Shown piece by piece: positions 14,647 to 53,650 of a DNA stretch of 64,000 bases; position 1 is the stretch's first letter, and each line of letters begins with the position of its first letter. The DNA comes from Patescibacteria group bacterium (GTDB taxonomy: Bacteria; Patescibacteriota; JABMPQ01; JAQVVF01). The DNA lies in contig JBAZSC010000001.1 of NCBI GenBank assembly GCA_041662665.1, forward strand, positions 321,511 through 385,510, given 5' to 3'. Below the pieces are notes generated by a model that saw only the letters and a list, made by a program, of their open reading frames with translations, did no database searches and was not told where the DNA came from. The position numbers and the translations under genes are program-made.

Positions 14647-14716
14647 TTGTCAAAATTGTTTTATTGTTTTATTATTAAATTGTTATGGGAACTTCTAGTT
14701 TAACCGATTTTTATTT

Positions 14717-38806: not shown

Positions 38807-38829
38807 TAATCTACACGTTTTTTTTGTGC

Positions 38830-38860
38830 AAAAAAAAGACCGACTCGGACGAGTCAGTCT
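38830..38860 (-). terminator. Intrinsic terminator of high-GC cassette C
   Basis: The minus strand reads agactgactcgtccgagtcggtct followed by T8. Confidence 0.7.
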
Positions 38861-38905
38861 AGGTAGGGTGCGAAAGGAACGGGTGTTGTGAGTGTGTGGG
38901 TAGGT

Positions 38906-39493
38906 CTATCGGGTGGGGGGGCTCAGCGTGTAGGTGTAGCGACCGGGGGCGAAGCTGATGTGCAGCTCTTCCTGGGTCACCATGCCGTCGCGGGGGACTG
39001 GCACGTTCACGGTGTCGAGCCTGTACAGCTCTTCACCCTTCTCGTTGACGTTGGCCCAGACGTTGCAGTAGGGTGTGGTCTGGTTGAAGAGGTTGACGAC
39101 ACGATCGGGCAGCTTGAGATCTTTTCCTGTCTGAGTGAGCACCAGCTGCAGGAACCTCTTCCTGCCACGCTTATCCTCACGCCAGAACCAGAAGGCATCC
39201 GTCACCTTGTAGCCAGCCATGCCGAGCTCGCTCAGGAGTGCGCTCATGTCGACCATCTGCCGATTGGCAGCGATGTTCGTGCCGGTGTCATCCATGCCGT
39301 CTCTCTTGACACCGAACTCGATTCCGAGATCCTTTGCCTCCTTGCGGTGCTTCGCAGCCACCGCCTTTGCATCGTACTCCTTCTGAGGGAGCAGAGCCTC
39401 GATCCAGCCGCCGATTCCGGCGACCTTCACGAGGATGATGAGGGGCATGAGCCCCAGACCTTCGAACTGATCAACCAGGACCGTGCGGCTCAT
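38906..39493 (-). CDS. High-GC (about 60%) SD-led ORF of unknown function, 195 aa (module C)
   Basis: Start reassigned to MSRTVLVDQFEG, preceded by acaGGAGGtttccg. Codons mostly end in G or C. There is one hydrophobic segment (LGLMPLIILVKVAGIGGWIEALL). I recognise no family. The plus-strand ORF 38888..39583 is its antisense shadow. Confidence 0.65.
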   Translation of the reverse strand: MSRTVLVDQFEGLGLMPLIILVKVAGIGGWIEALLPQKEYDAKAVAAKHRKEAKDLGIEFGVKRDGMDDTGTNIAANRQMVDMSALLSELGMAGYKVTDAFWFWREDKRGRKRFLQLVLTQTGKDLKLPDRVVNLFNQTTPYCNVWANVNEKGEELYRLDTVNVPVPRDGMVTQEELHISFAPGRYTYTLSPPTR

Positions 39494-39542
39494 CGGAAAC
39501 CTCCTGTCAGTGGTGGCACTCACCCCGATTCCAGGGCTTTTC

Positions 39543-39571
39543 ATCATATCACAGCACCCTATTTTTGTCAA
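39543..39571 (-). promoter_or_regulatory. Sigma70-type promoter of module C
   Basis: On the minus strand, TTGACA (39571-39566), a 17-nt spacer, then TATGAT (39548-39543). Confidence 0.6.
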
Positions 39572-39657
39572 TGGCATTTTTGAAGTGGGAAGTGGGATCT
39601 TGGGATATGAGAAATGGGAACCTTAAATAAGCCAAAAAAAGATATTTGTGCGATTAG

Positions 39658-39672
39658 TGGCCTTAAGGCATT
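39658..39672 (+). repeat. Copy 3 of the 15-mer palindromic core TGGCCTTAAGGCATT
   Basis: Identical 15-mer to copy 4, with flanks atatttgtgcgattag / cgtgcgatttg. It lies just 3' of the MYG1 terminator. Confidence 0.75.
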
Positions 39673-39730
39673 CGTGCGATTTGTAAGCATAAAAAAAGAG
39701 GTAAAAACCTCTATCTAAAAGAACGCTTAA

Positions 39731-40708
39731 TTATGCTTTGAGTGCAACCTTCGCTAGTGCAATCGCTCCTTCTCTTGATTTCGCTACTACAATATGCCCA
39801 TCTTTATGGCAGTTATCAGCATCAGCAACTCCAGTCAATTTGACCAAAGTTGAGCCGCGCTGTCCATGCCATGCTTTTGGCAAGTTTTTACGATAGCGTT
39901 TGCCAGTCCCATATCCAGCATTCACAACATGTACCATCCAGCCATTGTTAACGCGATGAACAACAAATTTGATCAGCGGTAATTCTTTAACAACTGATGA
40001 CCAAGGCATCGGATCATTCAATACAACAATTCTTGGATCATCAGATTCAGGTACCGCTTTCAACACCAGCTCTTCAGCTCTGATGACGCCTGCAGCTCTT
40101 GCAATTGTCCTTTTTAGATAGACCTTGGCAAATTCCAAAGCTTCAAAAAAAGCAACATCTGGATCTCGATCATTTTCATCCCAAGCTGGATTATAATTAT
40201 CAATCACATTTGAAATAGTGTGTGCAGAGATATCTTCCACTTTTCCTTGAAAAATCTTGTAGCCATTGTCCTGTGCATCAATTGGAATCACCAGCCACTT
40301 TTCTACAAGCTTAGCTACTTTTTCATTTCCATCACAAATTGCTACTCCAAACTTTTTCCAGACCAATCCAAAAGAAGCATAGGGCAGATGTGCGGTCACT
40401 TTCTTGCCAAACAATTTCCACATCAGCAAGTTGATAATATGCTTGAAAATCCAAGCAAACCGCAAGACTTTGAAAAAGCCTTCACGTATTCCAGCTCCGC
40501 CAAACATGTGATGATCAAAGTCGCCAGTATTTGGATCATTTTCGCCGCCGACATCAACTCGAAAATCAGCCTTTTCGTAAACTTCCTGATCGCGAGTCCG
40601 AAAAATTTGAATGATAAAGAGCAATGCCAATGCTGCACACGCAAACACATCATCAGCATGAAACCTTCCATTATGCGTTGCAACAACCTTATGTTCCTTC
40701 TCAATCAT
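39731..40708 (-). CDS. MYG1/UPF0160 family metal-dependent hydrolase; SD-led cassette gene
   Basis: The N-terminus VATHNGRFHADDVFACAAL is the MYG1 signature. The SD is GAGGAGGaagaggaa. The terminator agaggtttttacctct plus T-run follows. Confidence 0.8.
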   Translation of the reverse strand: MIEKEHKVVATHNGRFHADDVFACAALALLFIIQIFRTRDQEVYEKADFRVDVGGENDPNTGDFDHHMFGGAGIREGFFKVLRFAWIFKHIINLLMWKLFGKKVTAHLPYASFGLVWKKFGVAICDGNEKVAKLVEKWLVIPIDAQDNGYKIFQGKVEDISAHTISNVIDNYNPAWDENDRDPDVAFFEALEFAKVYLKRTIARAAGVIRAEELVLKAVPESDDPRIVVLNDPMPWSSVVKELPLIKFVVHRVNNGWMVHVVNAGYGTGKRYRKNLPKAWHGQRGSTLVKLTGVADADNCHKDGHIVVAKSREGAIALAKVALKA

Positions 40709-40742
40709 TTCCTCTTCCTCCTCTTCGTTTTCGCAGCTAATT

Positions 40743-40771
40743 AAAATATCAGAAAATAACTAAAATGTCAA
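40743..40771 (-). promoter_or_regulatory. Sigma70-type promoter of the MYG1 cassette
   Basis: On the minus strand, TTGACA (40771-40766), a 17-nt spacer, then TATTTT (40748-40743). Confidence 0.55.
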
Positions 40772-40800
40772 CTGAATGTAAAATATATTTGTGTTATTTG

Positions 40801-40815
40801 TGGCCTTAAGGCATT
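40801..40815 (+). repeat. Copy 4 of the 15-mer palindromic core TGGCCTTAAGGCATT
   Basis: tggccttaaggcatt with flanks atatttgtgttatttg / tgtgcatattcg. It lies just 3' of the TPR gene stop/terminator. Confidence 0.75.
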
Positions 40816-40847
40816 TGTGCATATTCGAGAGTATAAAAAATCAGCCG

Positions 40848-42353
40848 TTATTTCGACTGATCAACTCGGTTAAAGGACATTCCAAATGCGACTCTGTAGG
40901 CCGCGTACGCAGGTTCAAGGTACTCTCTTTCATCTGAACAAATATGTTGTTCACAACAAGTCAAGAAATAGTCAGCCTGTTTTTTGTCATGTCTCTTCGG
41001 CATTGTGAAAAAGTAGACAAAAGGCAGATACATTTCTGGCCTGCGTTTGTCATCATCAACCAGCATTTCCAAAGCTTGCAAAGTCCTCAGCATTTCAGAT
41101 AGCTTTGATCTGCCAATTCTTGATTTCTCAAGATAGATGAACAGAAGATTAACAGAAATTGCAGCAATGATTTCAGTATCATCAAAGGCCTTGATTGCTT
41201 CTTTGCATGTTGTTGCAAGAACATCAAGCCTTGTTGCTTTCATTTCTGGATCCGGAAGATGAGCGATTGTATGCCGATGTTCTTTCAGATGTCCAAGAAA
41301 TGCGCGTGTTGCCTGAATTGACTTTTCATCATCAACTCCAGCTTCGCGGCATTTTACCAAGTACTCGATTGCTTTCGCAAAAGTGCTTGGCTTTCTGGCA
41401 TAGAAAAAGACAAAAGCTGCATAGATTCTTGGTGGAACTCTGACACTCAAACCTTCAGCTTTTGCAAGCAGTTCATGCATTTCTTTTGATTTATCATCTC
41501 TGAATTTCTTTGACCATTCCAGATAGACATACAACAATCCTTCTATGGCTTGAATCAAGAAAGTAGGCGAATCTTGTAGATAGCTGATCGCTTCCAAAAA
41601 GAGCATCTCAGCTTCAGCAAGCTTTAGTCTTTGTTCATCAAGATCTTCAATCTCTTTGACAGCTTTGCGTTGATGTTCAGCATAAGCAGAACAAGCAGTT
41701 CCAACAAAGCTCAAGGCCAGAGATCTATTTTCTTTGAACTGAACAAAGAAAATCAATGCATCAGCAAACTTGTCCTTGGCGATCATCACTTCAATGTAAT
41801 CTTTCACCAGATAACCAACTTGTTTATTTTCACCATAATACTTCAGTAAGTGGGCAAGTTGAACTTGCGCTTTTTCAAAATCATCTTGAGCAAGATAGAT
41901 TCTTGCCATCATGCAATTTGCCTGACAAGAGAAGGGATTGATTCTCAAGGCGTCTTCAGCGTATTGCCTTGCATCATCAAATCTCTTTTGCTCGAGGCAA
42001 GTCTTAGCCTGAATCAGATAGAAATCAGTATCTTCATCAGAATCGCTAAACAATGCAGTGAGTTCGCTGATTTTTGCATTTTCGCGATCAGGAAAGAATC
42101 TCATCAAATAGCTTAGCTTTGCCATCGCCTGATCTTTTTGACCAGATTTATGCAAAGCATGAATCTGAAGATTCATTGCCAAACCATTGCAAGGATCTTC
42201 TCCAAGAGCTTTTTCGCAATGAACTAATACACCAGCAAAATCATTCTGTCCTAAACAAGTCGCCGCTTTTGCACAAGAATCAGGTTCAAGTGTTGATGAA
42301 TCACCAAGCAATTCAAGTAAATCACCAAGATTAAGATCTTCTGGCTCAGCCAT
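40848..42353 (-). CDS. TPR-repeat protein; SD-led cassette gene
   Basis: 501 aa with repeated A..Y...AL..(D/N)P helical-pair motifs (FDDARQYAEDALRINP, FEKAQVQLAHLLKYY). The SD is GAGGAGGaagaga. Confidence 0.7.
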   Translation of the reverse strand: MAEPEDLNLGDLLELLGDSSTLEPDSCAKAATCLGQNDFAGVLVHCEKALGEDPCNGLAMNLQIHALHKSGQKDQAMAKLSYLMRFFPDRENAKISELTALFSDSDEDTDFYLIQAKTCLEQKRFDDARQYAEDALRINPFSCQANCMMARIYLAQDDFEKAQVQLAHLLKYYGENKQVGYLVKDYIEVMIAKDKFADALIFFVQFKENRSLALSFVGTACSAYAEHQRKAVKEIEDLDEQRLKLAEAEMLFLEAISYLQDSPTFLIQAIEGLLYVYLEWSKKFRDDKSKEMHELLAKAEGLSVRVPPRIYAAFVFFYARKPSTFAKAIEYLVKCREAGVDDEKSIQATRAFLGHLKEHRHTIAHLPDPEMKATRLDVLATTCKEAIKAFDDTEIIAAISVNLLFIYLEKSRIGRSKLSEMLRTLQALEMLVDDDKRRPEMYLPFVYFFTMPKRHDKKQADYFLTCCEQHICSDEREYLEPAYAAYRVAFGMSFNRVDQSK

Positions 42354-42583
42354 TCTCTTCCTCCTCGTTTTTGCCTTTGACTTTCTGCTTTCTTTCTGTT
42401 ATTCTGAATCTGGAAGTTATCAATTTTATCCGCGTGCAATCCGATAAATCCGCGTTATTCGAAAAGCTGATTTTAACGGATTACATGCGGATAAAACTGA
42501 AAAATTAGTTATTTTGTTAAGAGCAAGAAAAAAAGAGCACTAAACATTATATAATATAATTATTAATTTGTCAATTTAAACGT

Positions 42584-43174
42584 ATGACACAAATAAAAAT
42601 GGAAGACGTCAAAAAATTACGCGAAATGTGTGGAGCTGGTTTTATGGACTGCAAAAAAGCTCTAGATGAAGCAAACGGAAATTATAATGAAGCAGTAAAA
42701 TTATTAAAGAAAAGAGGACAAGAGATCATGGCCAAAAAAGCTGGACGTGAAGCAACAGAAGGAATTATTGATTGCTATGTTCATGCTAATAAAAAAATTG
42801 GTTCAATGGTTGAAATCTTATGCGAAACAGATTTTGTCGCTAGAAATTCTGATTTTCAAGCTATGGCTCATGATATTGCAATTCAAGTTGCAGCTTCTAA
42901 TCCAATTTGTGTTTCACCAAATGATGTTCCAGCAGAAAAGTTAGCTGAATTAAAAAAAGAATGGCAAGAAGAAATCAACAAAATGGGCAAGCCAAAAGAA
43001 ATTGCAGATAAAATTATGGAAGGCAAAATTAAAAAATATTGTGAAGAAAACGCTTTAACAACTCAAGCCTTAGTTAAAGATCCAGAAAAAACTGTTCAAG
43101 AATTGTTGACTGAAACAACTGCAAAGTTGGGAGAAAAACTCGTGATAAAACGATTTGAACGTTTTGAAATATAA
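42584..43174 (+). CDS. tsf: Translation elongation factor Ts
   Basis: VKKLREMCGAGFMDCKKALDEANGNYNEAVKLLKKRG is a UBA-like EF-Ts N-terminus. Confidence 0.9.
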   Translation: MTQIKMEDVKKLREMCGAGFMDCKKALDEANGNYNEAVKLLKKRGQEIMAKKAGREATEGIIDCYVHANKKIGSMVEILCETDFVARNSDFQAMAHDIAIQVAASNPICVSPNDVPAEKLAELKKEWQEEINKMGKPKEIADKIMEGKIKKYCEENALTTQALVKDPEKTVQELLTETTAKLGEKLVIKRFERFEI

Positions 43175-43190
43175 ATTTAAAAATTAATAG

Positions 43191-43270
43191 TGTCATTCTG
43201 AGGCCTAAGCCGAAGAATCCCGTGATTGTTATCTGATTTACGGGATCCTTCACTGCGGTTCAGGATGACA
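43191..43270. repeat. GTCATYCTGAG-family hairpin repeat
   Basis: tgtcattctgaggcctaagccgaagaatcccg ... cgggatccttcactgcggttcaggatgaca. Confidence 0.75.
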
Positions 43271-43304
43271 GTATATTTTTCGTTATTACTTTTAAAACAA
43301 AATT

Positions 43305-44003
43305 ATGTACAACAGAATAATGCTCAAATTATCTGGTGAATTAATGATGGGCAACAAGGATTTTGGTATTGATCAAAAAACAGTTAGTAAATATGCTTCT
43401 CAAATTGTTGAATTAGTAAAAATGGGCAAACAAGTGATTGTTGAAATTGGAGCTGGAAATATTTATCGAGGTAGAGAAGAAAAAGAAATGAAAAGAACAA
43501 TTGCTGATAATTTAGGAATGTTAGGTAGTGTCATGAATGCAATAAATTTGCGAGAAGCTATTGATAAATTTGGCCATCAAGAAGCAAGAGCTTTGTCACA
43601 AATTTACATGCCATTTATTATTCAATATTACACTCCAGGAAAAGCAATTCATTATATGGATGAAAAAAAGATTGTTATTATGGGCGGAGGAACAGGAAAT
43701 CAATTTTTTTCAACTGACACTGGAGCAGTACTTCATGGATTGCAAACAGGATGCGATGTTGTTTTAAAAGCAACAAATGTTGATGGTGTTTATAATTCTG
43801 ATCCAAATGAAAATAAAGATGCAAAAAAATACGATACTCTTTCTTATGATGAAGTTTTGTCTAAAAAATTAGCAGTCATGGATCAAACAGCTTTTGCACT
43901 CGCTCGTGATAATGGATTGACAATCGTTGTTTTTAATGTTACAAAAGAAGGTAACTTGAAGAAAGCAGCAATGGGTGAGAAAATAGGAACGATTGTGAAG
44001 TAA
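43305..44003 (+). CDS. pyrH: UMP kinase
   Basis: IMLKLSGE ... GGGTGNQFFSTDTGAVL ... ATNVDGVYNSDP. Confidence 0.9.
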   Translation: MYNRIMLKLSGELMMGNKDFGIDQKTVSKYASQIVELVKMGKQVIVEIGAGNIYRGREEKEMKRTIADNLGMLGSVMNAINLREAIDKFGHQEARALSQIYMPFIIQYYTPGKAIHYMDEKKIVIMGGGTGNQFFSTDTGAVLHGLQTGCDVVLKATNVDGVYNSDPNENKDAKKYDTLSYDEVLSKKLAVMDQTAFALARDNGLTIVVFNVTKEGNLKKAAMGEKIGTIVK

Positions 44004-44112
44004 ATTAATATAATACGAATCTACAAATGGATGCTAATCTACGAAAATACGAATACGACAATTCGCATATTTGTAGATTAGCATAAAATTCGTAGATTCG
44101 TATTACATATAT

Positions 44113-44904
44113 ATGAAAATAATTGCAGGTATCAAATTTAATGTTTTAGACAAGATCTATAATTTTGACCAAAATAATATTATACTAAATAAGGGTGATA
44201 AGGTCATTGTTGAGACAGAACAAGGTACAGAAATTGGCACCGTTGTTTTTGCTAACAAAAATGTTGATGAAACAAAGCTTGAATTTGCTTTAAAGCCAAT
44301 TTTAAGAAAAGCAACAACAACTGATACTGAAAAGCTTGATAATTATAAGATTAAGCAGGAAGAAGCTTTAAAAGTATGCAAAGAATTAGTTGGCAAACAC
44401 AATTTAGATATGAAAATAGTTGCTGCTAATTATACTTTTGATGGTTCAAAAATAATTTTTTATTTTACTGCTGAAAGCAGAGTTGACTTCAGAGAATTAG
44501 TAAAAGACTTAACAAAAAAATTTCAAAAATCAATTCGCTTGCAACAAGTAGGATCCAGAGATGTTGCTGCAAAATGCGGCGGATGCGGAATGTGCGGTAA
44601 GGAATTATGTTGCACAAAATTCTTAAAAGATTTTGCTAGCATCACAACAGATATGGCACGAGAACAACAAATGGTTCAGCGAGGATCAGATAGAATTTCA
44701 GGTTGTTGCGGAAGATTATTATGTTGTTTAGCATACGAAACAGAATTATATCAAGATTTAGCTAAAGATTTTCCAACAGTTGGCAAAAGAGTTAGAACAA
44801 AACAAGGAGTTGGAACAGTTATTGGCAGAAATCTATTAACCAGAAATTTGGATATATTGCTTGATGATAAGACAAGAATATCAGTTAAGCTCCCGGAGAG
44901 ATAA
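44113..44904 (+). CDS. PSP1-domain protein (YaaT/RicT-like)
   Basis: The length, and the Cys cluster CGGCGMCGKELCC ... CCGRLLCCL near the C-terminus, are typical of the PSP1/RicT family. Confidence 0.7.
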   Translation: MKIIAGIKFNVLDKIYNFDQNNIILNKGDKVIVETEQGTEIGTVVFANKNVDETKLEFALKPILRKATTTDTEKLDNYKIKQEEALKVCKELVGKHNLDMKIVAANYTFDGSKIIFYFTAESRVDFRELVKDLTKKFQKSIRLQQVGSRDVAAKCGGCGMCGKELCCTKFLKDFASITTDMAREQQMVQRGSDRISGCCGRLLCCLAYETELYQDLAKDFPTVGKRVRTKQGVGTVIGRNLLTRNLDILLDDKTRISVKLPER

Positions 44905-45042
44905 TTTCTAATTATAAATTTCTAATTTCTATTAAATTCTTAATGAATTAATTTTCAAACCTAACGGCTAGTATAGACATTAGAAATTAATGCATTATTA
45001 ATTTAATAAAAATTAGAAATTAGAAATTGAAAATTAATAACG

Positions 45043-45678
45043 ATGTTTACATTGCAAACTTTAATTCCCGAAATAATTATTATTCTAGCCCTCGCTGGAA
45101 TTATTATGATTGCTGCAAAAAAATTTCCAGAAGTAGCGAAAATTAAAGTTGAGAATAAAAATAAAGAAAAATCATTATTTCAAAAAGCGGGCAAGTCAAT
45201 AATTGATTTTTCAGTAAGTGTAGCAAAAGCAGTTTTTGCTAGAATCGCTAATCTAAAAAATCTTAAAGATAAAATTAAAAAAGAAGAAAAAAAGGATGTT
45301 GATAATATCAGTAGACCAAGGCAAGAATTAAGAAAATTAATTCTCAATCGTCCAAAATCAAAACCGAAAGTTTTGCCAATTGCAAAAACGGAAACAAAAT
45401 CTCCAATCAGTTTGCGTGCAAAAGCTGAGCTTTTGACTGGAAAAAAAGAATACAAAGAAGCAGAAAAAGTTTATTTAGAATTAATTAAAAAAGATCCAAG
45501 AGATATAGTTGCATATAAAGGTTTAGGAAAAATATATTTTATTCAACAGATTTTAAGCGATGCGCAATCAGCTTATGAGCAAGCCGTAAAATTAAATCCA
45601 GATGATTTGGAATCTCAGACTGAAATTTACAAAATCAGAAATTTAAAAAAGGATTTGTCAATTAGAGGAAGGAAATAA
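45043..45678 (+). CDS. Membrane-anchored TPR protein
   Basis: An N-terminal TM helix and C-terminal TPR motifs (AEKVYLELIKKDP, AQSAYEQAVKLNP). Confidence 0.6.
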   Translation: MFTLQTLIPEIIIILALAGIIMIAAKKFPEVAKIKVENKNKEKSLFQKAGKSIIDFSVSVAKAVFARIANLKNLKDKIKKEEKKDVDNISRPRQELRKLILNRPKSKPKVLPIAKTETKSPISLRAKAELLTGKKEYKEAEKVYLELIKKDPRDIVAYKGLGKIYFIQQILSDAQSAYEQAVKLNPDDLESQTEIYKIRNLKKDLSIRGRK

Positions 45679-45789
45679 AATTTCATTCTGTCATCGCTGG
45701 TTAAATTTGTTGGTGTCAACAAATTTAACCAGCGAAGGATCCCATGATTTATTGCTGATTAATGGAATAATTGCGTAAACTTTTAACGG

Positions 45790-45972
45790 GCCGTTGTAGC
45801 TCAGTCGGCAGACCTGCCCGCCATCGCCCGAGCCATTGTAGCTCAGTTGGTAGAGCAATTCCATGGTAAGGAGTAGGTCACCGGTTCAATTCCGGTCAAT
45901 GGCTCAGGCGAGGGCAGGCGGGGTAATTCCATGGTAAGGAGTAGGTCGGCGGTTCGATTCCGCCCAACGGCT
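45790..45972 (+). tRNA. tRNA-Thr(GGU) interrupted between positions 23 and 24 (D-arm) by a 110-nt insertion
   Basis: The 5' part GCCGTTGTAGCTCAGTCGGCAGA (45790-45812) plus the 3' part GTAATTCCATGGTAAGGAGTAGGTCGGCGGTTCGATTCCGCCCAACGGCT (45923-45972) reconstitute a canonical 73-nt cloverleaf. It has acceptor GCCGTTG/CAACGGC, a D-stem with a G10-U25 wobble, and anticodon loop ATGGTAA. Confidence 0.6.
45832..45904 (+). tRNA. tRNA-Thr(GGU), complete, nested in the insertion of the outer tRNA
   Basis: GCCATTG TA GCTC AGTTGGTA GAGC A ATTCC ATGGTAA GGAGT AGGTC ACCGG TTCAATT CCGGT CAATGGC T: a full cloverleaf with anticodon GGT. Confidence 0.85.
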
Positions 45973-46056
45973 TTGCCCACCGAAGTTTTGCAAAGCAAAA
46001 CGAAGGAGGGCTTTGTCTTGATATTTTTTTAAAAAAAGATTAAAATATTAACAATT

Positions 46057-46139
46057 GGGTAGGTACCAAAGCGGTCAAATGGATCAGGCTGTAAACCTGA
46101 TGCCCTCGGGCTTCGCAGGTTCGAACCCTGCCCTACCCA
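46057..46139 (+). tRNA. tRNA-Tyr(GUA), class II with a long variable arm
   Basis: Acceptor GGGTAGG/CCTACCC, anticodon loop CTGTAAA, variable arm TGCCCTCGGGCTTC, and T-arm GCAGG TTCGAAC CCTGC. Confidence 0.9.
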
Positions 46140-46155
46140 AACGTGAATTTAAATC

Positions 46156-46226
46156 GCCCTCTTAGTTCAGTGGCAGAACAGCAGTTTTGTAAACTGCATA
46201 TGTCAGTTCGATTCTGACAGAGGGCT
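46156..46226 (+). tRNA. tRNA-Thr(UGU)
   Basis: Acceptor GCCCTCT/AGAGGGC, anticodon loop TTTGTAA, and T-arm GTCAG TTCGATT CTGAC. Confidence 0.9.
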
Positions 46227-46336
46227 TTCGAAAATTACAAATGTCAAATTCCAAATTCCAAACAAATTACAAATCACAATATACAAAATCTTTGTAATTT
46301 GTTTGGAATTTGTTATTTGTAATTTTATTTAATCTC

Positions 46337-47089
46337 ATGTCTCTTTTATCACAGGAGCTAATTAAATTAGGTCTATCTGACAAAGAAGCAAAAGTATATT
46401 TGGCTTCATTGGAATTAGGATATGACACAGTTTTAAATATTGCAAAAAAAGCAGGGATCAATCGACCAACTGCTTATTTTATTTTAGAGTCATTACAAAA
46501 AAAGGGGATTGTTACAACTTTTGAAAAAGATAAAAAAACTTATTTTGCATCCGAATCTCCTGACAAGTTAGTTACATTATTAAATCAGCAAAAAGAAGAT
46601 CTTAATCAAAAGCAAAAAGAATTTGAAAATATTTTGCCAGAATTTAAAGCTTTATTTAATTTGCCAACAGAAAAACCAACTGTCAGATTCTTTGAAGGCA
46701 GGCAAGGATTGTTATCAATGCGCGAGGATTTTTTGAAAACTACAGACAAAAAAATTGAGGCAATGTATTGTCTAGATGATCTTAACAAAGTTTTTACTCC
46801 TGAAGAAAATGCAAAGTTTACAGACAGAAGAGCTGAAAAAAATATTGAAACTTTCGCTATATATACTTCAATCAATGGTCCAACAAAAAGACCAAAGGCT
46901 CCAGGTGAAAGACGTTTTATTCCTTTCGATAAATTTCCTGTGACTGCTGATATTACAATATATAATAATAAAGTTGCCATTGCATCTTTGAAAGGAAAGC
47001 TATCAGGAGTAATTATTGAAAATAAAGAAATTGCTAATACAGTACGTTCACTATTTTATTTAGGTTGGGAATCAGCCAAAAAAGTATAA
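46337..47089 (+). CDS. TrmB-family transcriptional regulator
   Basis: The start is moved to MSLLSQELIKLGLSDKEAKVYLASLELGYDTVLNIAKKAGINRPTAYFILESLQKKGIV, which is a TrmB-type winged HTH. Confidence 0.75.
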   Translation: MSLLSQELIKLGLSDKEAKVYLASLELGYDTVLNIAKKAGINRPTAYFILESLQKKGIVTTFEKDKKTYFASESPDKLVTLLNQQKEDLNQKQKEFENILPEFKALFNLPTEKPTVRFFEGRQGLLSMREDFLKTTDKKIEAMYCLDDLNKVFTPEENAKFTDRRAEKNIETFAIYTSINGPTKRPKAPGERRFIPFDKFPVTADITIYNNKVAIASLKGKLSGVIIENKEIANTVRSLFYLGWESAKKV

Positions 47090-47098
47090 GAACATGCT

Positions 47099-47963
47099 AG
47101 AAACTCGGTTTTCTATTAATCAAAAAAATAAACTTATTGTAAGTAAAAACAAGGTATAAAAAATAATCATTTAATTAAGATAAAACCGAGTTTCGCGTGA
47201 ATTCAAAAATAGAAATGCGCAAAACAAATTTTACAAATGAATCATTTTATCATATCTACAATCGCGGTACTGAAAAACGCGATATTTTTTTGCAAAATTA
47301 TGATTATTTTCAATTTATTAAATTATTAAGAAAATATAAAAATAATTTAGTTGAAATAATCTGCTATTGCTTAATGCCGAATCATTTTCATTTATTGCTA
47401 AAACAATTAAATAATAATGGAATCAGCAAGTTCATGCATTTATTAACAATAAGTTATGCAAAATATTTTAACAAAAAATATGATCATAGCGGAGTTTTAT
47501 TTCAGGGAAAATTTAAAGATGTCCAGATTTTGAGCTATATTCAATTGCTAAATATTTCAAAATACATCCATATAAATCCAGCTAAAGATCAGAATATTTT
47601 ATTAAAACAAAAAATAATTACATTAGAAAATTATCCTTGGTCTTCTTATAAAGATTATATAAATATCAGAAACGGAACATTATGTAATAAAACCGAAATA
47701 ATAAATTGTGTAGAAGGTAATTTTGTAAAAGAGTATAAAGAATTAATAAAGGCACATTTGATGAATTATAATGAGAGAAATTTGGATAAATTAATACTTG
47801 AATGAGTGAAATAGAAACTCGGTTTTCTATTAATCAAAAAAATAAACTTAATGTAAGTAAGAACAAGGTATGAAAAATAATCATTTAATTAAGATAAAAC
47901 CGAGTTTCATCATGTTGTAAATAATTGACACACGAAACTCGGTTTCTTCGGAAACCGAGTTTC
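47099..47963 (+). mobile_element. IS200/IS605-like (RAYT-type) Y1 transposase element with hairpin-forming flanks
   Basis: The transposase ORF is flanked by two 96-bp direct repeats (47099-47194 and 47813-47908). Each repeat is bounded by gaaactcggtttt ... aaaaccgagtttc. A third minimal hairpin gaaactcggtttcttcggaaaccgagtttc lies at 47934-47963. Confidence 0.75.
47197..47805 (+). CDS. IS200-like / REP-associated tyrosine transposase (HUH Y1 family)
   Basis: FYHIYNRGTEKRDIF, the HUH motif in CYCLMPNHFHLLLKQ, and YIHINPAK. The track start is GTG. An ATG 18 nt downstream is an alternative start. Confidence 0.8.
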   Translation: MNSKIEMRKTNFTNESFYHIYNRGTEKRDIFLQNYDYFQFIKLLRKYKNNLVEIICYCLMPNHFHLLLKQLNNNGISKFMHLLTISYAKYFNKKYDHSGVLFQGKFKDVQILSYIQLLNISKYIHINPAKDQNILLKQKIITLENYPWSSYKDYINIRNGTLCNKTEIINCVEGNFVKEYKELIKAHLMNYNERNLDKLILE

Positions 47964-47984
47964 AAAGAATGTGTTAATTTTCGC

Positions 47985-48245
47985 GCAAAATAAAACCGGG
48001 CAAAAGCTCGGTTAAGGGAACAAAGGGCAAAAAATCGATTCATCCAATTGGCGTTCATTTTATTGTCTTCTCCGTCAGGAGTTGGGGGAGTCGCTTGGCA
48101 CTTATAACTGTTAACTTTCAACTGTTAACTAGTTTTCAGTCGCCCATGACGTCCTCCTCTACCAATGGGGTAGAGGTTAGCATCGCCATAGTTTCAGGCG
48201 CGCCTTCCTCGACCCAGGGAACCAAAGATCAAGATGATTTATAAC
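47985..48245 (-). ncRNA. Candidate noncoding transcript with a GC-rich 5' domain
   Basis: It is bounded by a consensus promoter (48251-48278, minus strand) and a hairpin plus T-run (minus strand aaccgagcttttgcccggttttatttt, near 47990-48015). The GC-rich segment at 48135-48225 contains the hairpin cctctacc/ggtagagg and the palindrome aggcgcgcct. Confidence 0.3.
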
Positions 48246-48250
48246 AATGT

Positions 48251-48278
48251 ATTATAGCAAGCCTGTAGTATTTGTCAA
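48251..48278 (-). promoter_or_regulatory. Consensus sigma70-type promoter (minus strand)
   Basis: On the minus strand, TTGACA (48278-48273), a 16-nt spacer, then TATAAT (48256-48251). Confidence 0.6.
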
Positions 48279-48481
48279 TAGATTTGGACAATTTAGTGTA
48301 ATTAGTAATGAGTAACTAGTAATTAGGCGAAAAAACTTGCAAAATTATTAATACCTGATATTATCAAAATTGTCAGTAATAATAGACAAAATAAGCTAAA
48401 ATAGCTTGTTTTTATTTTGCCTTGTTTAAAGCAAAATATGTCAAAATATCGAAAAAGATAATAAATATTTGTAAAAACCTC

Positions 48482-48510
48482 TTGACATGATAAAAATAGA
48501 GTAATATAAT
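48482..48510 (+). promoter_or_regulatory. Perfect consensus sigma70 promoter (plus strand)
   Basis: TTGACA (48482-48487), a 17-nt spacer, then TATAAT (48505-48510). Confidence 0.65.
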
Positions 48511-48574
48511 GCAGAGTTCTAAGCTCAAACCAAGCTCATTCCAAAATGTCAATCAGAGCAAACTAGTTTAACAG

Positions 48575-48654
48575 TCTAACCAGTTTAGGTTAACCAGTCT
48601 AACTAGTCTAACCAGTTTAGGTTAACCAGTCTAACTAGTCTAACCAGTTTAACC
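48575..48654. repeat. 32-bp tandem repeat, about 2.5 copies
   Basis: The unit tctaaccagtttaggttaaccagtctaactag starts at 48575 and 48607, with a partial copy at 48639. There are no unique spacers. Confidence 0.85.
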
Positions 48655-48663
48655 GCATTTCCG

Positions 48664-48751
48664 TCTATTTATTAGAGGAGGTGAAATGGTCTCCAGGGAA
48701 TAAATCTTTTCTTTAGTCCTTGCTGAGCCACTTCGGCCTCTAATAAATGGG
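48664..48751 (+). ncRNA. Hairpin-closed structured element containing an SD-led 5-codon mini-ORF
   Basis: A 15-bp closing stem: tctatttattagagg (48664-48678) pairs with cctctaataaatggg (48737-48751). Inside is aGGAGGtgaaATGgtctccagggaaTAA (MVSRE), with an inner stem caggga/tccttg and a cttcgg loop. Confidence 0.35.
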
Positions 48752-48974
48752 CAGAATGAAATTTCCAATTACCAATTTCCAATTCACAATAAATTTTCAA
48801 TAAGCAATTTTCAATGACGACAGTGACGATTTGAAAATTAGTAATTGGTCATTTATTGTAAATTGATAATTGGAAATTAGAGATATGTAATCAGTAACTA
48901 GTAATCAAAAAATTGATTCCTAAATACTGATTGCGTGCGAGAGGGGACCAAGAGTCCTCGAGGAGGAAAGGACA

Positions 48975-49196
48975 ATGGCGAATTGCATCATCTGCCACCA
49001 GCGCGTTGCGAGCGGCGGTGACCGGCATGCCAAGGGGCAGTGTCCGGCGAAGAAGAAGGAGCGCGAGCAGAAGGAGAACGAGGTGCAGGCCGGCGATCTC
49101 GCGACCCCGGGTCGCGGAGACGTCGTGCCGCTGGCCGGCAAGACCAGCACCCAGCTCTCCAACAAGGGCAAGTCCCGGGGGTCCAAGTCGGGCTGA
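48975..49196 (+). CDS. High-GC SD-led small basic protein, 73 aa (module A)
   Basis: The SD cGAGGAGGaaaggaca precedes the ATG. Of the overlapping ORFs here, this is the frame I picked because its codons mostly end in G or C. The protein is MANCIICHQRV...GQCPAKKKEREQKE... I recognise no family. Confidence 0.55.
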   Translation: MANCIICHQRVASGGDRHAKGQCPAKKKEREQKENEVQAGDLATPGRGDVVPLAGKTSTQLSNKGKSRGSKSG

Positions 49197-49392
49197 GCCT
49201 GACACGACCCACAAGACGAGCCCAAGTACTAGGTTCTAGTGTCGTTCCGTTTCATCCCCAAGTTCCCCAGATTTTTCTTCAGTTTTCCGCCAGTACCTTC
49301 CATGCCAGACTCTTGTCTGGCCCCACCTGAAATAATAATGATTACATTGTTATTTGAGGCGGTACATTAAAAAATGATCAATTTACAATTTT

Positions 49393-49547
49393 TCACCCTT
49401 CGGGTGACCACCCGCAGGGTGGCAATAAATTACCAATTACCAATTTTCAAAGCGACGATGGTCGTAATTGGAAATTGTTCATTGAAAATTTATTGGAAAT
49501 TGCAAAATTGGTAATTGCCACCCTACGGGTGGTCACCCGAAGGGTGA
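49393..49547. repeat. About 155-nt composite inverted repeat with GC-rich self-complementary ends
   Basis: tcacccttcgggtgaccacccgcagggtggcaa ... ttgccaccctacgggtggtcacccgaagggtga. The AT-rich ccaatt/aattgg words sit in the middle. Confidence 0.8.
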
Positions 49548-49639
49548 GAAATTAGGGTTTGCGGTAAAGCAAAGATCTTAAAAAAGATTTTCGCCTTGCT
49601 GCAAAGTGCAGCCTATAGCAGAGAAGGAAAAGTAAACGA

Positions 49640-49816
49640 TGAACGATCAGATGGACGCGGCGGACCGGCGGATCATGGACGAAACGACTGTTCGGCTCGA
49701 AGGCCGGCAGGTCAAGTCCAGCCAGGGAGCTGGTTCCAGGTCGGCAGAAGTGCCAATCTGGAAGATCCGCGCGAGCCGTCGTGCTCTCCCCGCCATGGCA
49801 GTCTACGGCGACTAGA
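49640..49816 (+). CDS. Possible high-GC small ORF, 58 aa (module B)
   Basis: Below the ORF-track length cut-off. ATG at 49640 with only a weak SD (agaaGGAaaagtaaacg). The protein is MNDQMDAADRRIMDETTVRLEGRQVKSS..., and the frame has mostly G/C-ending codons. Confidence 0.35.
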
Positions 49817-50061
49817 CCTACCCCCAACTCTTCAGTTTTCCGCTCGTACCCTCCTGTGGTCACTTTTCGTGGCCACCTCAGCTTAAGCAACGATGTGATC
49901 GTTGAGTAAGTAGAGAACGTTACAAAATTATCAATTTCCAATTTACAATTCTCAATAAATTTTCAATGAACGATTTCCAATGGCGATACTCGGTCTGAAA
50001 ATTGAAAATTGGTAATTTATTGGAAATTGTAAAATTGATAATTGGAAATTAAATCTAGCTT

Positions 50062-50106
50062 TCAGCAGTTTGCCTCAAATTATTTTGAGACACACTATTG
50101 ATAGCT
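50062..50106 (+). promoter_or_regulatory. Conserved ~45-nt leader element, copy 1
   Basis: tcagcagtttgcctcaaattattttgagacacactattgatagc. It is about 80% identical to copy 2 and contains the hairpin ctcaaa/tttgag. Confidence 0.45.
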
Positions 50107-50148
50107 ACATCTCGTCCTTTCACCAACTGAAGCACACAAGGAGGAAAA

Positions 50149-50814
50149 ATGCCAAGTAAAGACAAGCCAAGACATGTTTTTGTTAATTGCTTGTTTCATG
50201 AAAACGAAAGGCTTACAGTCACCAACAAGGATGGTGAATTAAAAGCCTGGGGATTTGATGGCGATGTAATAAGTATCATCTCGGAATCCATGTTGCTTAG
50301 CATATCGGGTTCCAATCTGCAACTTGATAAAAGAAAAAAAGCATTGTGTAGATATTTAAAGCTTTTCTTCAACGAAGGAAAACAACCTCCAGCAATTTGT
50401 TTTGAGCATGCAAGGAAGTTGGAATCTGTGTTGTTGCAAATGCGACGATTTCTTCCTAAGGAAAAAGCTAATGTCCAGATTTCTATGATTCCATATCAAG
50501 AAAGTCTGGATAAATGGGCAATCTGGGTAGCCGAAGTAAAAAGAAATAGAGATATTGAAGCTACGAGATTGTGGCGTGAGATTATTTCTAAGCATTTTCC
50601 AGATGATGAAAGTATTGCAGACGAGCAAGACGCAAAAGTGCTTGCTGATCGTCTGTCTTCTGAATGTGTTAGAGAATTATTTGATAAGATACGCAATACT
50701 GCACTTTACCGCAAATCAGAAAAATCTGAATTGCTGAAACAGATCGGATTGTACTTAGCAGAAAAAGCGTATGAAGAAGCAAAAATAAAACATGAAATAG
50801 ATTCTTGGAAGTAG
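50149..50814 (+). CDS. Hypothetical protein, 221 aa; SD-led cassette gene
   Basis: The SD cAAGGAGGaaaa precedes the ATG. GC content is intermediate. I recognise no family. Confidence 0.6.
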   Translation: MPSKDKPRHVFVNCLFHENERLTVTNKDGELKAWGFDGDVISIISESMLLSISGSNLQLDKRKKALCRYLKLFFNEGKQPPAICFEHARKLESVLLQMRRFLPKEKANVQISMIPYQESLDKWAIWVAEVKRNRDIEATRLWREIISKHFPDDESIADEQDAKVLADRLSSECVRELFDKIRNTALYRKSEKSELLKQIGLYLAEKAYEEAKIKHEIDSWK

Positions 50815-50943
50815 ATGACTGCATTTTAACCTCTGTATGTTTCCAGTTTTTATCAAGTTTTTAATGAATAATTTGCAATAGTTTGAAAATTAATTCATTG
50901 AAAATTTAATAAAAATTAATAATTAGAAATTAAAAATTCGCTG

Positions 50944-50987
50944 TCAGCCTTTTGCCTCAAATCATTTGGAGACAAAAGATTGATAGC
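50944..50987 (+). promoter_or_regulatory. Conserved ~45-nt leader element, copy 2
   Basis: tcagccttttgcctcaaatcatttggagacaaaagattgatagc. It lies upstream of high-GC module D. Confidence 0.45.
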
Positions 50988-51247
50988 CTGTCCCGTACTA
51001 TGTTTCTGGTGAATATAAAAAAACATTGATTACTTTAGGAATTTAATCAATGCAACAAACAATATTTATTAGATACTTAGTATGGGATTAATGCTAGAAC
51101 ACTGACAACTTGGAAGGTAAAAATAATAGTCAAAAGTGTTAACTGTTAAGTGTTAATGGTTAACTGTTTGAAGTTGGCACATCGCGGCCAGGCAAGGCCG
51201 CGTTCGCGCGCGAGTAGATTCCGCTTGTGTCAGAGGAGGAGAGCGAC

Positions 51248-53515
51248 ATGTCGACCAACTGCGAGCCGAAGAGCGTCAGCACCGTCAACACCGTCACCGA
51301 GGAGAAGGAGGTGAAGCCCGCCCGGGTGCGCAAGCCCCGGGTGAAGGTCGAGAAGGAAGAGCAGGAGCAGTTCAACGAGGATGGCACGAAGAAGGATGTG
51401 AAGGACGAGGCCCCGCCCAAGAAGCGGAGCCACCACAAGAAGGTCGAGAAGTCCGTCGCCGTCGAGACCGAGACCGCCGAGCCCGCCCCGCCCGCCGAGT
51501 CCACCCCCAAGGTGGCGTCGGTGGCGGTGGTCGAGCAGCCGGTCCAGGTCGCCCCGCCCGCCGCGCCCCAGCCCGAGCCCCCCAAGAAGGGCGAGGTCGA
51601 GGACGTCAACGAGGACGAGGACAAGGACGGCGAGAGCGAGGGTGAGGACGAGGAGCAGGAGACCAGCGAGGAGGCGCTGGAGGACGCCCAGATCAACGAC
51701 CTGGAGTTCCAGAAGAAGATGAGCGAGCTCCCCCGGCACGAGCAGATCCGGCGGCAGAAGGCCCGCAACCGGGTCATCACGAGCAACCGGCGCAGCCGCA
51801 AGACGGCGGCGCAGGACAAGAACCGCGCGGAGCACAACGAGATGCGCGAGGCCGGGCGGCCGGAGGTGAAGATCACCATCCCGGACCCCCTGATCTGCAG
51901 CGCCCACGCCGGTGAAGTCCTGAAGCTCGAGGACGCCTACTCGCTGAACAGCAGCGTGGTCTACGAGCTGACCCAGGTGAGCCAGGAAGGCAAGACCGAG
52001 GCGCAGACCAAGATCCTGAAGTTCGTGGTGAGCAAGCTCGCTCCGCTGTTCCGGTTCAACTGCGAGACCATCCCGGCCTACTGCAAGACGGTGGTGGACG
52101 TGCTGGCGAAGAACATCGCGGCCGTCCAGCCCCTCATCGCGCACGAGAAGAAGGCGCGGTGGGAGAGCCGGATCGTCATGCCCTACGCGGCCGCGCTCCG
52201 GCACTTCGCCGAGAGCAAGGCCGCGGTCGAGGGCAAGCAGCAGAACGTCAAGGACCGGCAGAACAAGGAGGCGTGGGCCTGGTTCGACGAGAACATCGGC
52301 AAGTTTCACGCCGAGCTGGTCGGGCTGCGCAGCGTCGAGGAGATCGTCGGCAAGATCGACATCCTGAACGGCCTGAACGACAAGTGTCTCGACACCTTGC
52401 GCCACCACTTCCTCGAGACCCTGCCCGTGATGCGCTACAGCGAGCCCGGCAAGATGCTGGGTCAGCTGCTGCGCGAGCGGGGCAAGAAGTACGAGCAGGT
52501 GCAGATCGAGGAGCAGCGGGCCCGCAAGGCCGAGGCCGACGAGAAGCGCAGGAAGGAGGAAGAGAAGGCTCTGGCCGGGCTGGGCGAGCTCGAAGGGCTG
52601 TTCGGTGGCGAGGAGAAGCAGGGCGAGGAGCAGGACGAGGAGCCCAGCGAGCGTGACGAGAACGAGAAGCGGATCGGCAAGTGGCTGGAGAAGCTTGTCG
52701 GCGGGAAGATGCACAGCGCGGCCGGGCTGATGACGCCCAGCGCCCTGCGCGAGATCTTCGCCGCGGATCCGGGCGCCGAGGTCTACTCGGCCTGCCCGTT
52801 CAGCCAGCAGGCGCCGGGGACCCAGTACTCCACCTACGTGAACCGGAAGGGCGACAACGAGCCCCTCTTCGCGACGGTGACGGTCCCGACCCTCGTGGTC
52901 GAGACCGACGACGAGGGTCAACCGATCTGCGACGGCAAGGGGCGGCCCAAGCCGTGGATCAACCCCCGTACGAGCAAGACGCAGTACGAGGGGCAGATCG
53001 CGGTGCTGACGAAGCACGAGGCCCGCTGGGCCGCGTCGATCCGCATCCGCCAGATGGCCGAGGAGCAGGTGAACAACGGCCGGTACGACTCGCTGGAGGA
53101 GGCCATCAACGGCATCCATCAGGAAGTCAACCAGGCCAAGACCAACCTCTGGGCGGCCAAGAAGGAGTTCAACGAGGCCAAGGTCTCCGGCGACCAGAGC
53201 CGCATCGACGCGGCCGAGGAGCGCCTGAACCAGGCCAAGGAGGTCATGAACCATCTGAGCGACGACCGTCGTCCGTGGTACCAGGGGATGCTCGAGGGAA
53301 GCCTCGGTGTCCTCAAGTACTACGATCTCAAGAACACGGTCGAGATGCTCAACAAGCCCCGTGAAGAGCGGCCCGCCAAGCGCAACACGCGCGGCGGCGG
53401 GACCCACGGCAACTACGAGCAGGAGCAGTCCCAGGGCGCGAGCGCGGAAGAGCAGGAGGCCTTCTTCCGCAGCCAGAACAACCAGAGCTTCGCCAACAAG
53501 GCCCGCCAGGTCTGA
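51248..53515 (+). CDS. High-GC, GC3-saturated SD-led ORF of unknown function, 755 aa (module D)
   Basis: ATG at 51248 preceded by caGAGGAGGAGagcgac (the track start at 51227 is GTG). By my manual read, about 30-odd of ~755 codons end in A or T. The protein is K/E/Q/N-rich with an acidic/basic low-complexity N-terminal ~200 aa. I recognise no domain. Confidence 0.75.
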   Translation: MSTNCEPKSVSTVNTVTEEKEVKPARVRKPRVKVEKEEQEQFNEDGTKKDVKDEAPPKKRSHHKKVEKSVAVETETAEPAPPAESTPKVASVAVVEQPVQVAPPAAPQPEPPKKGEVEDVNEDEDKDGESEGEDEEQETSEEALEDAQINDLEFQKKMSELPRHEQIRRQKARNRVITSNRRSRKTAAQDKNRAEHNEMREAGRPEVKITIPDPLICSAHAGEVLKLEDAYSLNSSVVYELTQVSQEGKTEAQTKILKFVVSKLAPLFRFNCETIPAYCKTVVDVLAKNIAAVQPLIAHEKKARWESRIVMPYAAALRHFAESKAAVEGKQQNVKDRQNKEAWAWFDENIGKFHAELVGLRSVEEIVGKIDILNGLNDKCLDTLRHHFLETLPVMRYSEPGKMLGQLLRERGKKYEQVQIEEQRARKAEADEKRRKEEEKALAGLGELEGLFGGEEKQGEEQDEEPSERDENEKRIGKWLEKLVGGKMHSAAGLMTPSALREIFAADPGAEVYSACPFSQQAPGTQYSTYVNRKGDNEPLFATVTVPTLVVETDDEGQPICDGKGRPKPWINPRTSKTQYEGQIAVLTKHEARWAASIRIRQMAEEQVNNGRYDSLEEAINGIHQEVNQAKTNLWAAKKEFNEAKVSGDQSRIDAAEERLNQAKEVMNHLSDDRRPWYQGMLEGSLGVLKYYDLKNTVEMLNKPREERPAKRNTRGGGTHGNYEQEQSQGASAEEQEAFFRSQNNQSFANKARQV

Positions 53516-53621
53516 ACCTTCCAACAACCCGCCCCCGGGACAAGTCCAAGCTTTAAGCTTGTAACCTTGCTCCCTGGCGCGCGGCACACTACCATTCCAG
53601 TTCTTTCATTCCCGTTCCTTC

Positions 53622-53650
53622 AGAAGACCCTTACCGGTCTTCTTTTTTTT
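53622..53650 (+). terminator. Intrinsic terminator of module D
   Basis: agaagaccc tta ccggtcttct followed by T8. Confidence 0.7.

Follow-up and report, generated by a model that had tools for sequence, protein, structure and literature searches.

The stretch analyzed here (the window; 64,000 nucleotides of contig JBAZSC010000001.1 in assembly GCA_041662665.1, forward-strand positions 321,511 to 385,510) comes from a genome of the Saccharibacteria (Patescibacteria), and its G+C content is 32% outside four GC-rich units, which we call modules C, A, B, and D and which each contain one open reading frame (ORF). An original prediction, made from the letters of the window alone, had grouped these modules into one family and proposed that they derive from a foreign or mobile multi-gene system, broken into individually terminated units and placed under host-type promoters. 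We compared the window with related loci (designated by L and a number), among them L003, from an uncultured Candidatus Saccharibacteria metagenome-assembled genome (MAG), and the further related loci L005/L013 and L015/L016. The same GC-rich units recur at the same positions in these relatives, with fast-evolving ORFs whose third codon positions turn over while staying G or C, suggesting that the modules are native genes of a narrow clade rather than imported DNA.

Module C (38829..39571, minus strand) is a complete transcription unit, with orthologues beside TruD/EF-Ts in six lineages. It starts from the promoter TTGACA-17-TATGAT with TG (39543-39571, 11/12 match), followed by a hairpin in the 5′ untranslated region (UTR) at ~39523-39537 and a Shine-Dalgarno (SD) sequence GGAGG at 39500-39504. 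The ORF (38906-39493) encodes 195 aa with one hydrophobic segment at residues 13-31, and a C-rich 3′ UTR (38861-38905) that opens with ACCTACC leads to a canonical terminator (38837-38860 plus T-run). The promoter and leader are conserved in six genomes, and the sequence of the leader hairpin varies while its pairing, judged by eye, is kept. The types of C terminator found disagree with the genome tree.

Modules A and B lie on the plus strand, and no promoter was identified directly upstream of either. Module A (48925..49321, orthologues in L003 and L005) has the SD GAGGAGG and an ORF of 73 aa (48975-49196) with a conserved CxxC..GGDxH..GxCP motif and a basic tail, and its 3′ UTR (49197-49321) contains GTTCCGTTTCATCCCC and a B-type block, TCTTCAGTTTTCCGCCAGTACCTTCC, and ends in a hairpin without a U-tract (49303-49321). 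Module B (49553..49906, orthologues in L005 and L015) has a conserved leader (49553-49638) with a weak SD, an ORF of 58 aa (49639-49815), a 3′ UTR that starts with ACCTACC and includes TCTTCAGTTTTCCGCTCGTACCCTCC, and a hairpin without a U-tract (49856-49876), followed by a second hairpin at ~49884-49906. Between A and B we observed a large composite hairpin (49387-49553). An AT-rich word hairpin lies inside its GC-rich outer arms (CACCCTTCGGGTGACCACCCGCAGGGTGGC, 95% complementary), whereas the remaining spacers are purely AT-rich.

Module D (51102..53650, plus strand) is the largest, with orthologues P0008 (L015) and P0009 (L005) and a partial one in L003. A promoter-like sequence, CTGACA-17-AATAGT (51102-51130, 9/12), is conserved in relatives, and the 5′ UTR has a hairpin (51183-51202), a GCGCGCG run, and the SD GAGGAGG. 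The ORF (51248-53515) encodes 755 aa, with a disordered N-terminus rich in K, E, and P, helical central and C-terminal parts, and invariant Cys and His residues. The 135-nt 3′ UTR (53516-53650) begins with ACCTTCC and is predicted to fold into a long hairpin, an unpaired pyrimidine box (CCAGTTCTTTCATTCCCGTTCC), and a terminator (53622-53643). Much of this build had been described correctly in the original prediction, including the GGAGG-type SDs, weak in B, the pyrimidine-box words, all of which were found in the window, the AT-rich host-type word hairpins that separate the units, and a hairpin in every module, which is a canonical terminator in C and D and a stem without a U-tract in A and B.

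Measured from promoter or leader to terminal hairpin (C 38837-39536, A 48925-49321, B 49596-49876, D 51176-53643), the units have G+C fractions of 0.60, 0.61, 0.59, and 0.66, against 0.32 in the remaining window. The abrupt jump that had been claimed is most evident at A and D, where the 60-nt blocks immediately beyond the unit drop to 0.22-0.30; the edges of C are less sharp (0.38-0.40 in the outside blocks), and at the 5′ end of B the change is gradual (0.40 to 0.43). A sliding-window profile returned GC islands at 38.8-39.6, 48.9-49.35, 49.55-49.95, and 51.1-53.7 kb and a small one at 48.07-48.24 kb, and the only other GC-rich spots in the window are tRNA genes. G+C at third codon positions (GC3) is 0.81 in C, 0.88 in A, 0.75 in B, and 0.96 in D, compared with 0.18-0.35 in host genes, and among all ORFs of at least 45 aa in the 64 kb, only those of the four modules have a GC3 of at least 0.72, in agreement with the G/C-ending codons noted originally. 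Codon adaptation to host usage, with the 37 host genes of the window as reference, is 0.18-0.24 for the modules and 0.54-0.77 for those genes; in D, lysine is encoded 67 times by AAG and never by AAA, and CGG occurs 21 times, compared with 5 times across all 37 host genes. The raised G+C extends to all three codon positions and to the UTRs. The four ORFs have a GC skew of 0.01-0.11, and the 3′ UTRs are C-rich (0.34-0.44) and G-poor (0.13-0.18).

An alternative is that the islands are assembly chimeras from a GC-rich organism or structured noncoding RNAs with accidental ORFs; in its favor, long accidental ORFs are typical of GC-rich DNA, and a 785-aa shadow ORF lies opposite D. The junctions are identical in independent assemblies, orthologous islands exist in other species, and SD, ATG, promoter, and terminator agree on one strand. 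The proteins align with invariant residues, no Rfam family matches the modules, and D has a strong three-base periodicity (GC1/2/3 of 0.65/0.38/0.96), which identifies the modules as coding rather than structured RNA. We give this alternative almost no credence, as it is already refuted by these data, and structured RNAs of a thermophile were rejected on the same grounds, since the codon periodicity shows coding and Rfam searches at gathering or E-value thresholds returned nothing apart from tRNAs. Judged by these sequence features, the ORFs of C, A, B, and D are true coding genes. Two independent assemblies (ENA and Logan) differ from the window by one synonymous single-nucleotide polymorphism (1 in 7.7 kb) and one copy of a 32-nt repeat. 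This gives no sign of ongoing hypermutation, and we rejected that explanation for the variability described below.

In all loci recovered, TruD and EF-Ts flank C, and the other modules are found in the interval from the TrmB-like gene to rpmG. All four modules are present in L005/L013. L015 has B, C, and D and cleanly lacks A, and L003 has A, C, and D, with no B in the stretch from A to D. The units of the relatives are again GC-rich islands in AT-rich DNA, with a GC3 of 0.74-0.93 (L003, L005/L013, L015/L016). The original prediction had proposed co-occurrence in other genomes as a test of whether the four units belong together, and they do, at the same syntenic sites in at least three further lineages of Saccharibacteria and with a shared build and evolutionary behavior.

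Outside this clade, we found no homologue of the module proteins among 5.8 billion protein clusters or, in a separate HMMER search, among 1.84 billion representative proteins. D matched only itself in the former collection and 3 clusters in the latter, and the 6 clusters matched by C are all internal to the clade. Phage records, plasmid records, and viral contigs gave no module match, and a metagenome collection scanned with the exact D 3′ UTR and a C protein profile gave no further loci. A match in L010 (Prevotellaceae) was discarded as spurious, as it falls within an unrelated 503-aa Prevotellaceae protein. The module proteins have no match in Pfam, NCBIfam, or PADLOC, the sole PHROG match is weak and leads to a family without assigned function (phrog_5083, E = 1e-4), and a sequence search of the PDB returned marginal L29 noise only. 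Together with Foldseek, these searches gave no family or fold, in line with the original prediction, which had assigned the proteins no function. Full-text literature searches turned up no account of GC-rich gene islands in either Saccharibacteria or Patescibacteria.

The modules differ from their surroundings in rate as well as in composition. Proteins encoded in the flanks mostly share 83-100% identity across the four genomes (70-91% for TruD), while the module proteins are 32-71% identical. Between L005 and L015, nucleotide identity is ~97% through TrmB and most of the intergenic DNA, falls to ~50-55% inside the B and D ORFs, and returns to 82-90% in the D 3′ UTR, and a breakpoint lies within the D ORF, where the first ~140 nt are 80-93% identical before a fall to ~50%. 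The module alleles are thus much older than the genomes that carry them, which indicates that relatives trade them by recombining within the conserved flanking sequence. At conserved amino acids of D, the codon is identical in 0.67-0.71 of cases, compared with 0.63-0.65 expected under full randomization, and the synonymous differences are overwhelmingly C<->G (36-42 per pair). In core genes of the L005-L015 pair, identical codons amount to 0.78-0.90 vs 0.52-0.57 expected, and the differences are A/T, A/G, and C/T changes. Third positions in the modules have therefore turned over fully and are still G or C, indicating that GC-richness is actively maintained, through selection or through biased conversion, and is not the remnant of an import.

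The 3′ UTR of D follows the opposite pattern. It is 89-91% identical in three species in which the ORF is largely unalignable, and among the blastn matches of the window to L015 in this region it ranks first, above TrmB (83%) and rpmG with tRNA-Trp (81%), so that its conservation exceeds that of both its ORF and the neighboring DNA, as would be expected of a regulatory 3′ UTR. Conservation in A, B, and C is weaker (60-78%).

The original prediction had also described the 3′ UTRs of the four modules as related, which we examined by local alignment against dinucleotide-preserving shuffles. The relationship stands for short positional motifs and for A and B, whose 3′ UTRs have in common a 26-nt block (z 8.3-8.7), TCTTCAGTTTTCCGC..GTACC.TCC, immediately upstream of the hairpin. 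The pairs B-C and C-D reach p ~0.05 within the window and z 3-4 only when orthologous UTRs are added, similarity in A-C, A-D, and B-D is at chance, and p < 0.01 was obtained in 5/72 comparisons. The exact motif CTTCAGTTYT is limited to A and B. ACCTWCC occurs 11 times in the window, compared with 4.3 expected, and starts at the first base after the stop in 3/4 units, as ACCTACC or ACCTTCC in B, C, and D, which agrees with the post-stop motif reported before. The 5′ UTRs have nothing in common beyond the SD, and the four proteins are not related to one another. The description as one family therefore holds for build, co-occurrence, and evolutionary behavior and is weakly supported by sequence, indicating a design and a handful of short 3′ motifs in common rather than descent from one sequence. 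The 26-nt block (A 49276-49301, B 49829-49854) is absent from the A alleles of L003 and L005, and the sequences suggest a local conversion between the 3′ ends of A and B in the window lineage. Self-pairing of the ACCTWCC and C-rich boxes with the SDs of their own units was also considered and rejected, as the duplex energies were no better than those of dinucleotide shuffles.

A further ORF of 221 aa (50149..50814, plus strand; GC 0.37, GC3 0.32), with host-like GC, lies ~430 bp upstream of the D start codon and had been described as an orphan. It is instead a low-GC paralogue of the central Cys/His-containing domain of the D family (E = 4e-22 vs the L005 allele). A paralogue this AT-rich beside D indicates that the GC pressure attaches to particular units and not to the region or to the protein fold. 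Copies of a ~105-nt direct repeat (50002-50105 and 50883-50987, 79% identical) lie on either side of the ORF; in the relatives the repeat is present as a single copy upstream of D, and the arrangement suggests the footprint of a partial tandem duplication. The repeat carries a word hairpin and the palindrome CTCAAA..TTTGAG and precedes both the paralogue and D, and it is possibly an operator.

A fifth, small GC-rich unit (47990..48278, minus strand; GC island 48071-48240) is conserved in L003, L005, and L015. It has a 12/12 consensus promoter, the sequence GAGGAGG-N5-ATGGGCGACTGA, a C-rich stretch (CTCCCCCAACTCC), and its own terminator, and it contains a mini-ORF that reads MGD* in the window and MGDGD* in those three loci, followed by ~120 nt to the terminator. 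The sequence of its hairpin differs between genomes. The C-rich stretch and GGCGAC-stop resemble the 3′ end of module B. A second 12/12 promoter lies on the plus strand at 48482-48510, so both consensus promoters of the original prediction are real, and it is followed by tandem 32-nt repeats (GTCTAACCAGTTTAGGTTAACCAGTCTAACTA-like, ~48540-48650), with one copy fewer in the independent assembly L001, and by a ~95-nt long hairpin element (48659-48756, plus strand; consensus fold -39 kcal/mol). This element is nearly invariant in four genomes, while the surrounding intergenic DNA is ~70% identical, and it has no Rfam match. The 48482 promoter and the hairpin may form a leader that feeds an A(-B) transcript.

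The neighboring genes were also largely as first described, with the TrmB-like gene, the RAYT-like Y1_Tnp gene, and L33 (rpmG) all confirmed. The RAYT-like gene (47197-47980) lies 260 bp from the fifth unit, but L005 and L015 carry it at other sites, and none was seen within the 20 kb of L003. In the window, it is followed by GAAACTCGGTTTC hairpins, and REP-like hairpins flank the RAYT, not the modules. The L005 copy (14230-15000) is near a radical-SAM gene and is flanked by GC-rich palindromes of the REP type (GGCC-TTTAGG-CC type). Across the relatives, the units have no constant association with the RAYT or its REP hairpins, and the RAYT and its repeats appear, on this comparison, to vary independently of the modules. 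Genes for 23S_rRNA_IVP/bAvd-like four-helix proteins were observed in L003 (6900-7286), L005 (4769-5134), and L015 (3790-4176), between EF-Ts and pyrH or beside TrmB and not consistently adjacent to the modules; they are differently placed in the relatives and absent from the matching sites of the window, and so behave as insertions. Between C and EF-Ts, the window has a MYG1-family gene and a 501-aa TPR gene (39731-42353; GC ~0.40-0.42, slightly above host level). This pair occurs in this genome only; L003 has only a 501-aa gene of like size at the site, L012 has MYG1 adjoining C, and L005 and L015 have neither.

Taken together, we favor, with a probability of roughly 0.5, the reading that the modules are chromosomal genes of a narrow Candidatus Saccharibacteria clade that are kept GC-rich and are not imported DNA. 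They form four independent, mostly monocistronic units, along with the fifth mini-ORF unit, each built from an AT-rich sigma-70-type promoter (clear in C, promoter-like in D), a leader that is GC-rich and in C and D includes a hairpin, an SD, the ORF, and a C-rich, G-poor 3′ UTR closed by a hairpin. The GC-rich part largely coincides with the part inferred to be transcribed. An active, unit-specific force would hold 59-66% G+C, with a GC3 of up to 0.96, in a 32% genome. As the limits of the GC-rich parts mostly follow those of the inferred transcripts and the neighboring paralogue is AT-rich, this force is most likely selection on the RNA or its decoding. The ORFs evolve very fast, with whole alleles swapped between relatives through recombination in conserved UTRs and flanks. 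Such a pattern would be expected if the genes, as is probable, serve in interaction or conflict with the host or with other cells. The conserved 3′ UTRs, in which a single-stranded pyrimidine box precedes a hairpin, are probably RNA stability or regulatory elements. Of the proteins, A is small, basic, and possibly zinc-binding, C is predicted to carry a hydrophobic anchor, and D is large, charged, and helical.

Several points weigh against this reading. We infer both the translation of the ORFs and the selection on the units from sequence, and the comparison covers four to six lineages with neighborhoods of ~20 kb each. The D 3′ UTR and the 95-nt hairpin are too conserved for compensatory base-pair changes to be counted. 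An AF2 model of D (pLDDT 61) gave no Foldseek match in the PDB below E = 0.3, and the AF2 model of C is poor (pLDDT 40) and not usable. Finally, GC-biased gene conversion during allele exchange could produce high GC without any RNA function.

This last mechanism is the basis of an alternative that we regard as possible but doubtful, in which the modules are recombination hot spots where biased heteroduplex repair drove weakly constrained sites to G or C as a by-product; a similar argument has been made for the GC-rich vls cassettes of Borrelia. Allele replacement is demonstrated here, with synonymous sites of the modules near saturation between L005 and L015 and those of core genes not, and the breakpoint within the D ORF, the C terminator types that depart from the genome tree, and the B-type 26-nt block found in the window A and missing from other A alleles would all fit, as would the rise in G+C at every codon position and in the UTRs. 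Against it, the edges of A and D are abrupt, the zones of crossover are the conserved UTRs and flanks and not the GC peak, the D-domain paralogue ~430 bp away has host-like GC, and, to our knowledge, a GC3 of 0.96 against a background of 0.2 would require a conversion bias far above bacterial reports. The closest precedent is the vls system of Borrelia, which has ~49% G+C in a 28.6% genome, a composition thought to be selected and tied to gene conversion, and a GC skew of ~0.5 with G-runs (PMC11499132). Both systems have a coding region ~20 points above an AT-rich genome and a hypervariable protein (PMC11499132), but vls consists of contiguous promoterless silent cassettes and varies within a strain, whereas here four unrelated proteins have their own UTRs and terminating hairpins and the variation was seen between genomes rather than inside a single one. 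In tblastn and blastn searches of the 64-kb window, the low-GC 221-aa paralogue was the only match besides the modules themselves, with no silent cassettes or other copies, and the pronounced skew of vls is absent, with just 0.01-0.11 in the four ORFs.

The foreign multi-gene system of the original prediction, taken from a GC-rich donor, possibly moved by the RAYT, and domesticated under host promoters, retains only a slight chance. The composition and codon usage do resemble those of a GC-rich organism, as in genomic islands, in which composition likewise shifts abruptly, codon usage is atypical, proteins are orphans, and presence or absence varies to some extent; the hairpins of A and B without U-tracts and the Y1_Tnp gene close to the small unit also suit it. 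However, no donor homologue was found in any collection searched, and the units hold fixed syntenic positions in four lineages that are themselves close to saturation at the synonymous sites of core genes, with no variable insertion site among the relatives, where the absences concern single units only (A in L015, B in L003). No mobility gene is linked to them, since the RAYT of the relatives is elsewhere and has its own REP hairpins, and we noticed neither an integrase nor att-like direct or terminal inverted repeats at the borders, although no dedicated search was made; scans for border repeats returned only generic AT-rich word hairpins around the modules. Genomic islands ameliorate toward the recipient, and here synonymous sites randomized between alleles are still G or C, which is incompatible with passive amelioration and excludes an un-ameliorated recent import. 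We therefore consider a foreign origin largely refuted. It is very unlikely, in our judgment, that the units instead form a fast-evolving set written in the codon dialect of a GC-rich host cell, either delivered as RNA or DNA through a cell-cell channel and translated there or gated by host tRNAs or RNA entering the epibiont. Their codon usage is the mirror image of that of the genome, and fast evolution fits effector-like genes. Uptake of host RNA has been reported in Patescibacteria, whose codons are proposed to be complementary to those of their GC-rich hosts and so to avoid translation of imported host RNA (Katayama et al. 2026, bioRxiv 10.64898/2026.06.21.733656). The parallel lies in AT-ending epibiont codons set against GC-ending host codons and in the functional meaning proposed for them, but that work concerns whole genomes and does not describe a conserved minority of GC-ending, host-like genes in an epibiont, and our literature search found no description of such a minority in an epibiont chromosome. 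Against this reading, the promoters are ordinary sigma-70 sites within the AT-rich DNA of the epibiont, and the rare codons also appear, at low frequency, in host genes and are hence decodable.

Other known systems resemble the modules in part. Diversity-generating retroelements do not account for the variability, as no reverse transcriptase domain was present in the Pfam-scanned ORFs (36.5-56.8 kb) or in the Pfam lists of related loci, no repeat of module DNA was found, and variability spans whole ORFs of up to 2.2 kb. No hallmarks of integron cassettes were seen, although no search aimed at intI or attC was made. Allele-replacement loci under diversifying selection, such as pherotype and O-antigen-type loci, likewise have divergent alleles, older than the genomes, between the conserved flanks of near-identical genomes. 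Their GC is usually lower or unremarkable, whereas here the whole unit is extremely GC-rich and its best-conserved part is the 3′ UTR. Small RNAs of Gram-positive bacteria that derive from 3′ UTRs or have C-rich seeds, of the RsaE/RoxS type, provide a likeness for that part, an unpaired C/U-rich box (UCCC, CUUCC words) directly upstream of a terminator hairpin and conserved above the ORF, but there is no sequence or Rfam relationship, and the elements described here are known from predicted folds and conservation only. The "hypervariable gene" of Gracilibacteria encodes a PTD repeat protein and is a different phenomenon.

We found no earlier description of a gene set in an AT-rich episymbiont that combines extreme, actively maintained GC-richness with conservation and hypervariability. 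A local departure in composition is normally read as the scar of a recent transfer, and here it is conserved across species and survives synonymous turnover. A GC3 of 0.96 in a ~0.2 background, confined to units and conserved, indicates a force, either selection or biased conversion, that acts on specific genes within a reduced, AT-rich symbiont genome. As these are the fastest-evolving genes of the region and are exchanged between relatives, they are candidates for host interaction, and they yield three or more conserved RNA-like elements as well as new families of proteins. If the units were written in the codon dialect of a host, their codon usage would be a host-contact switch or a signal for cross-cell expression. 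With their host-like codons, the conserved units offer a testable handle on the codon-avoidance idea as well as on the strength of GC-biased conversion in bacteria.

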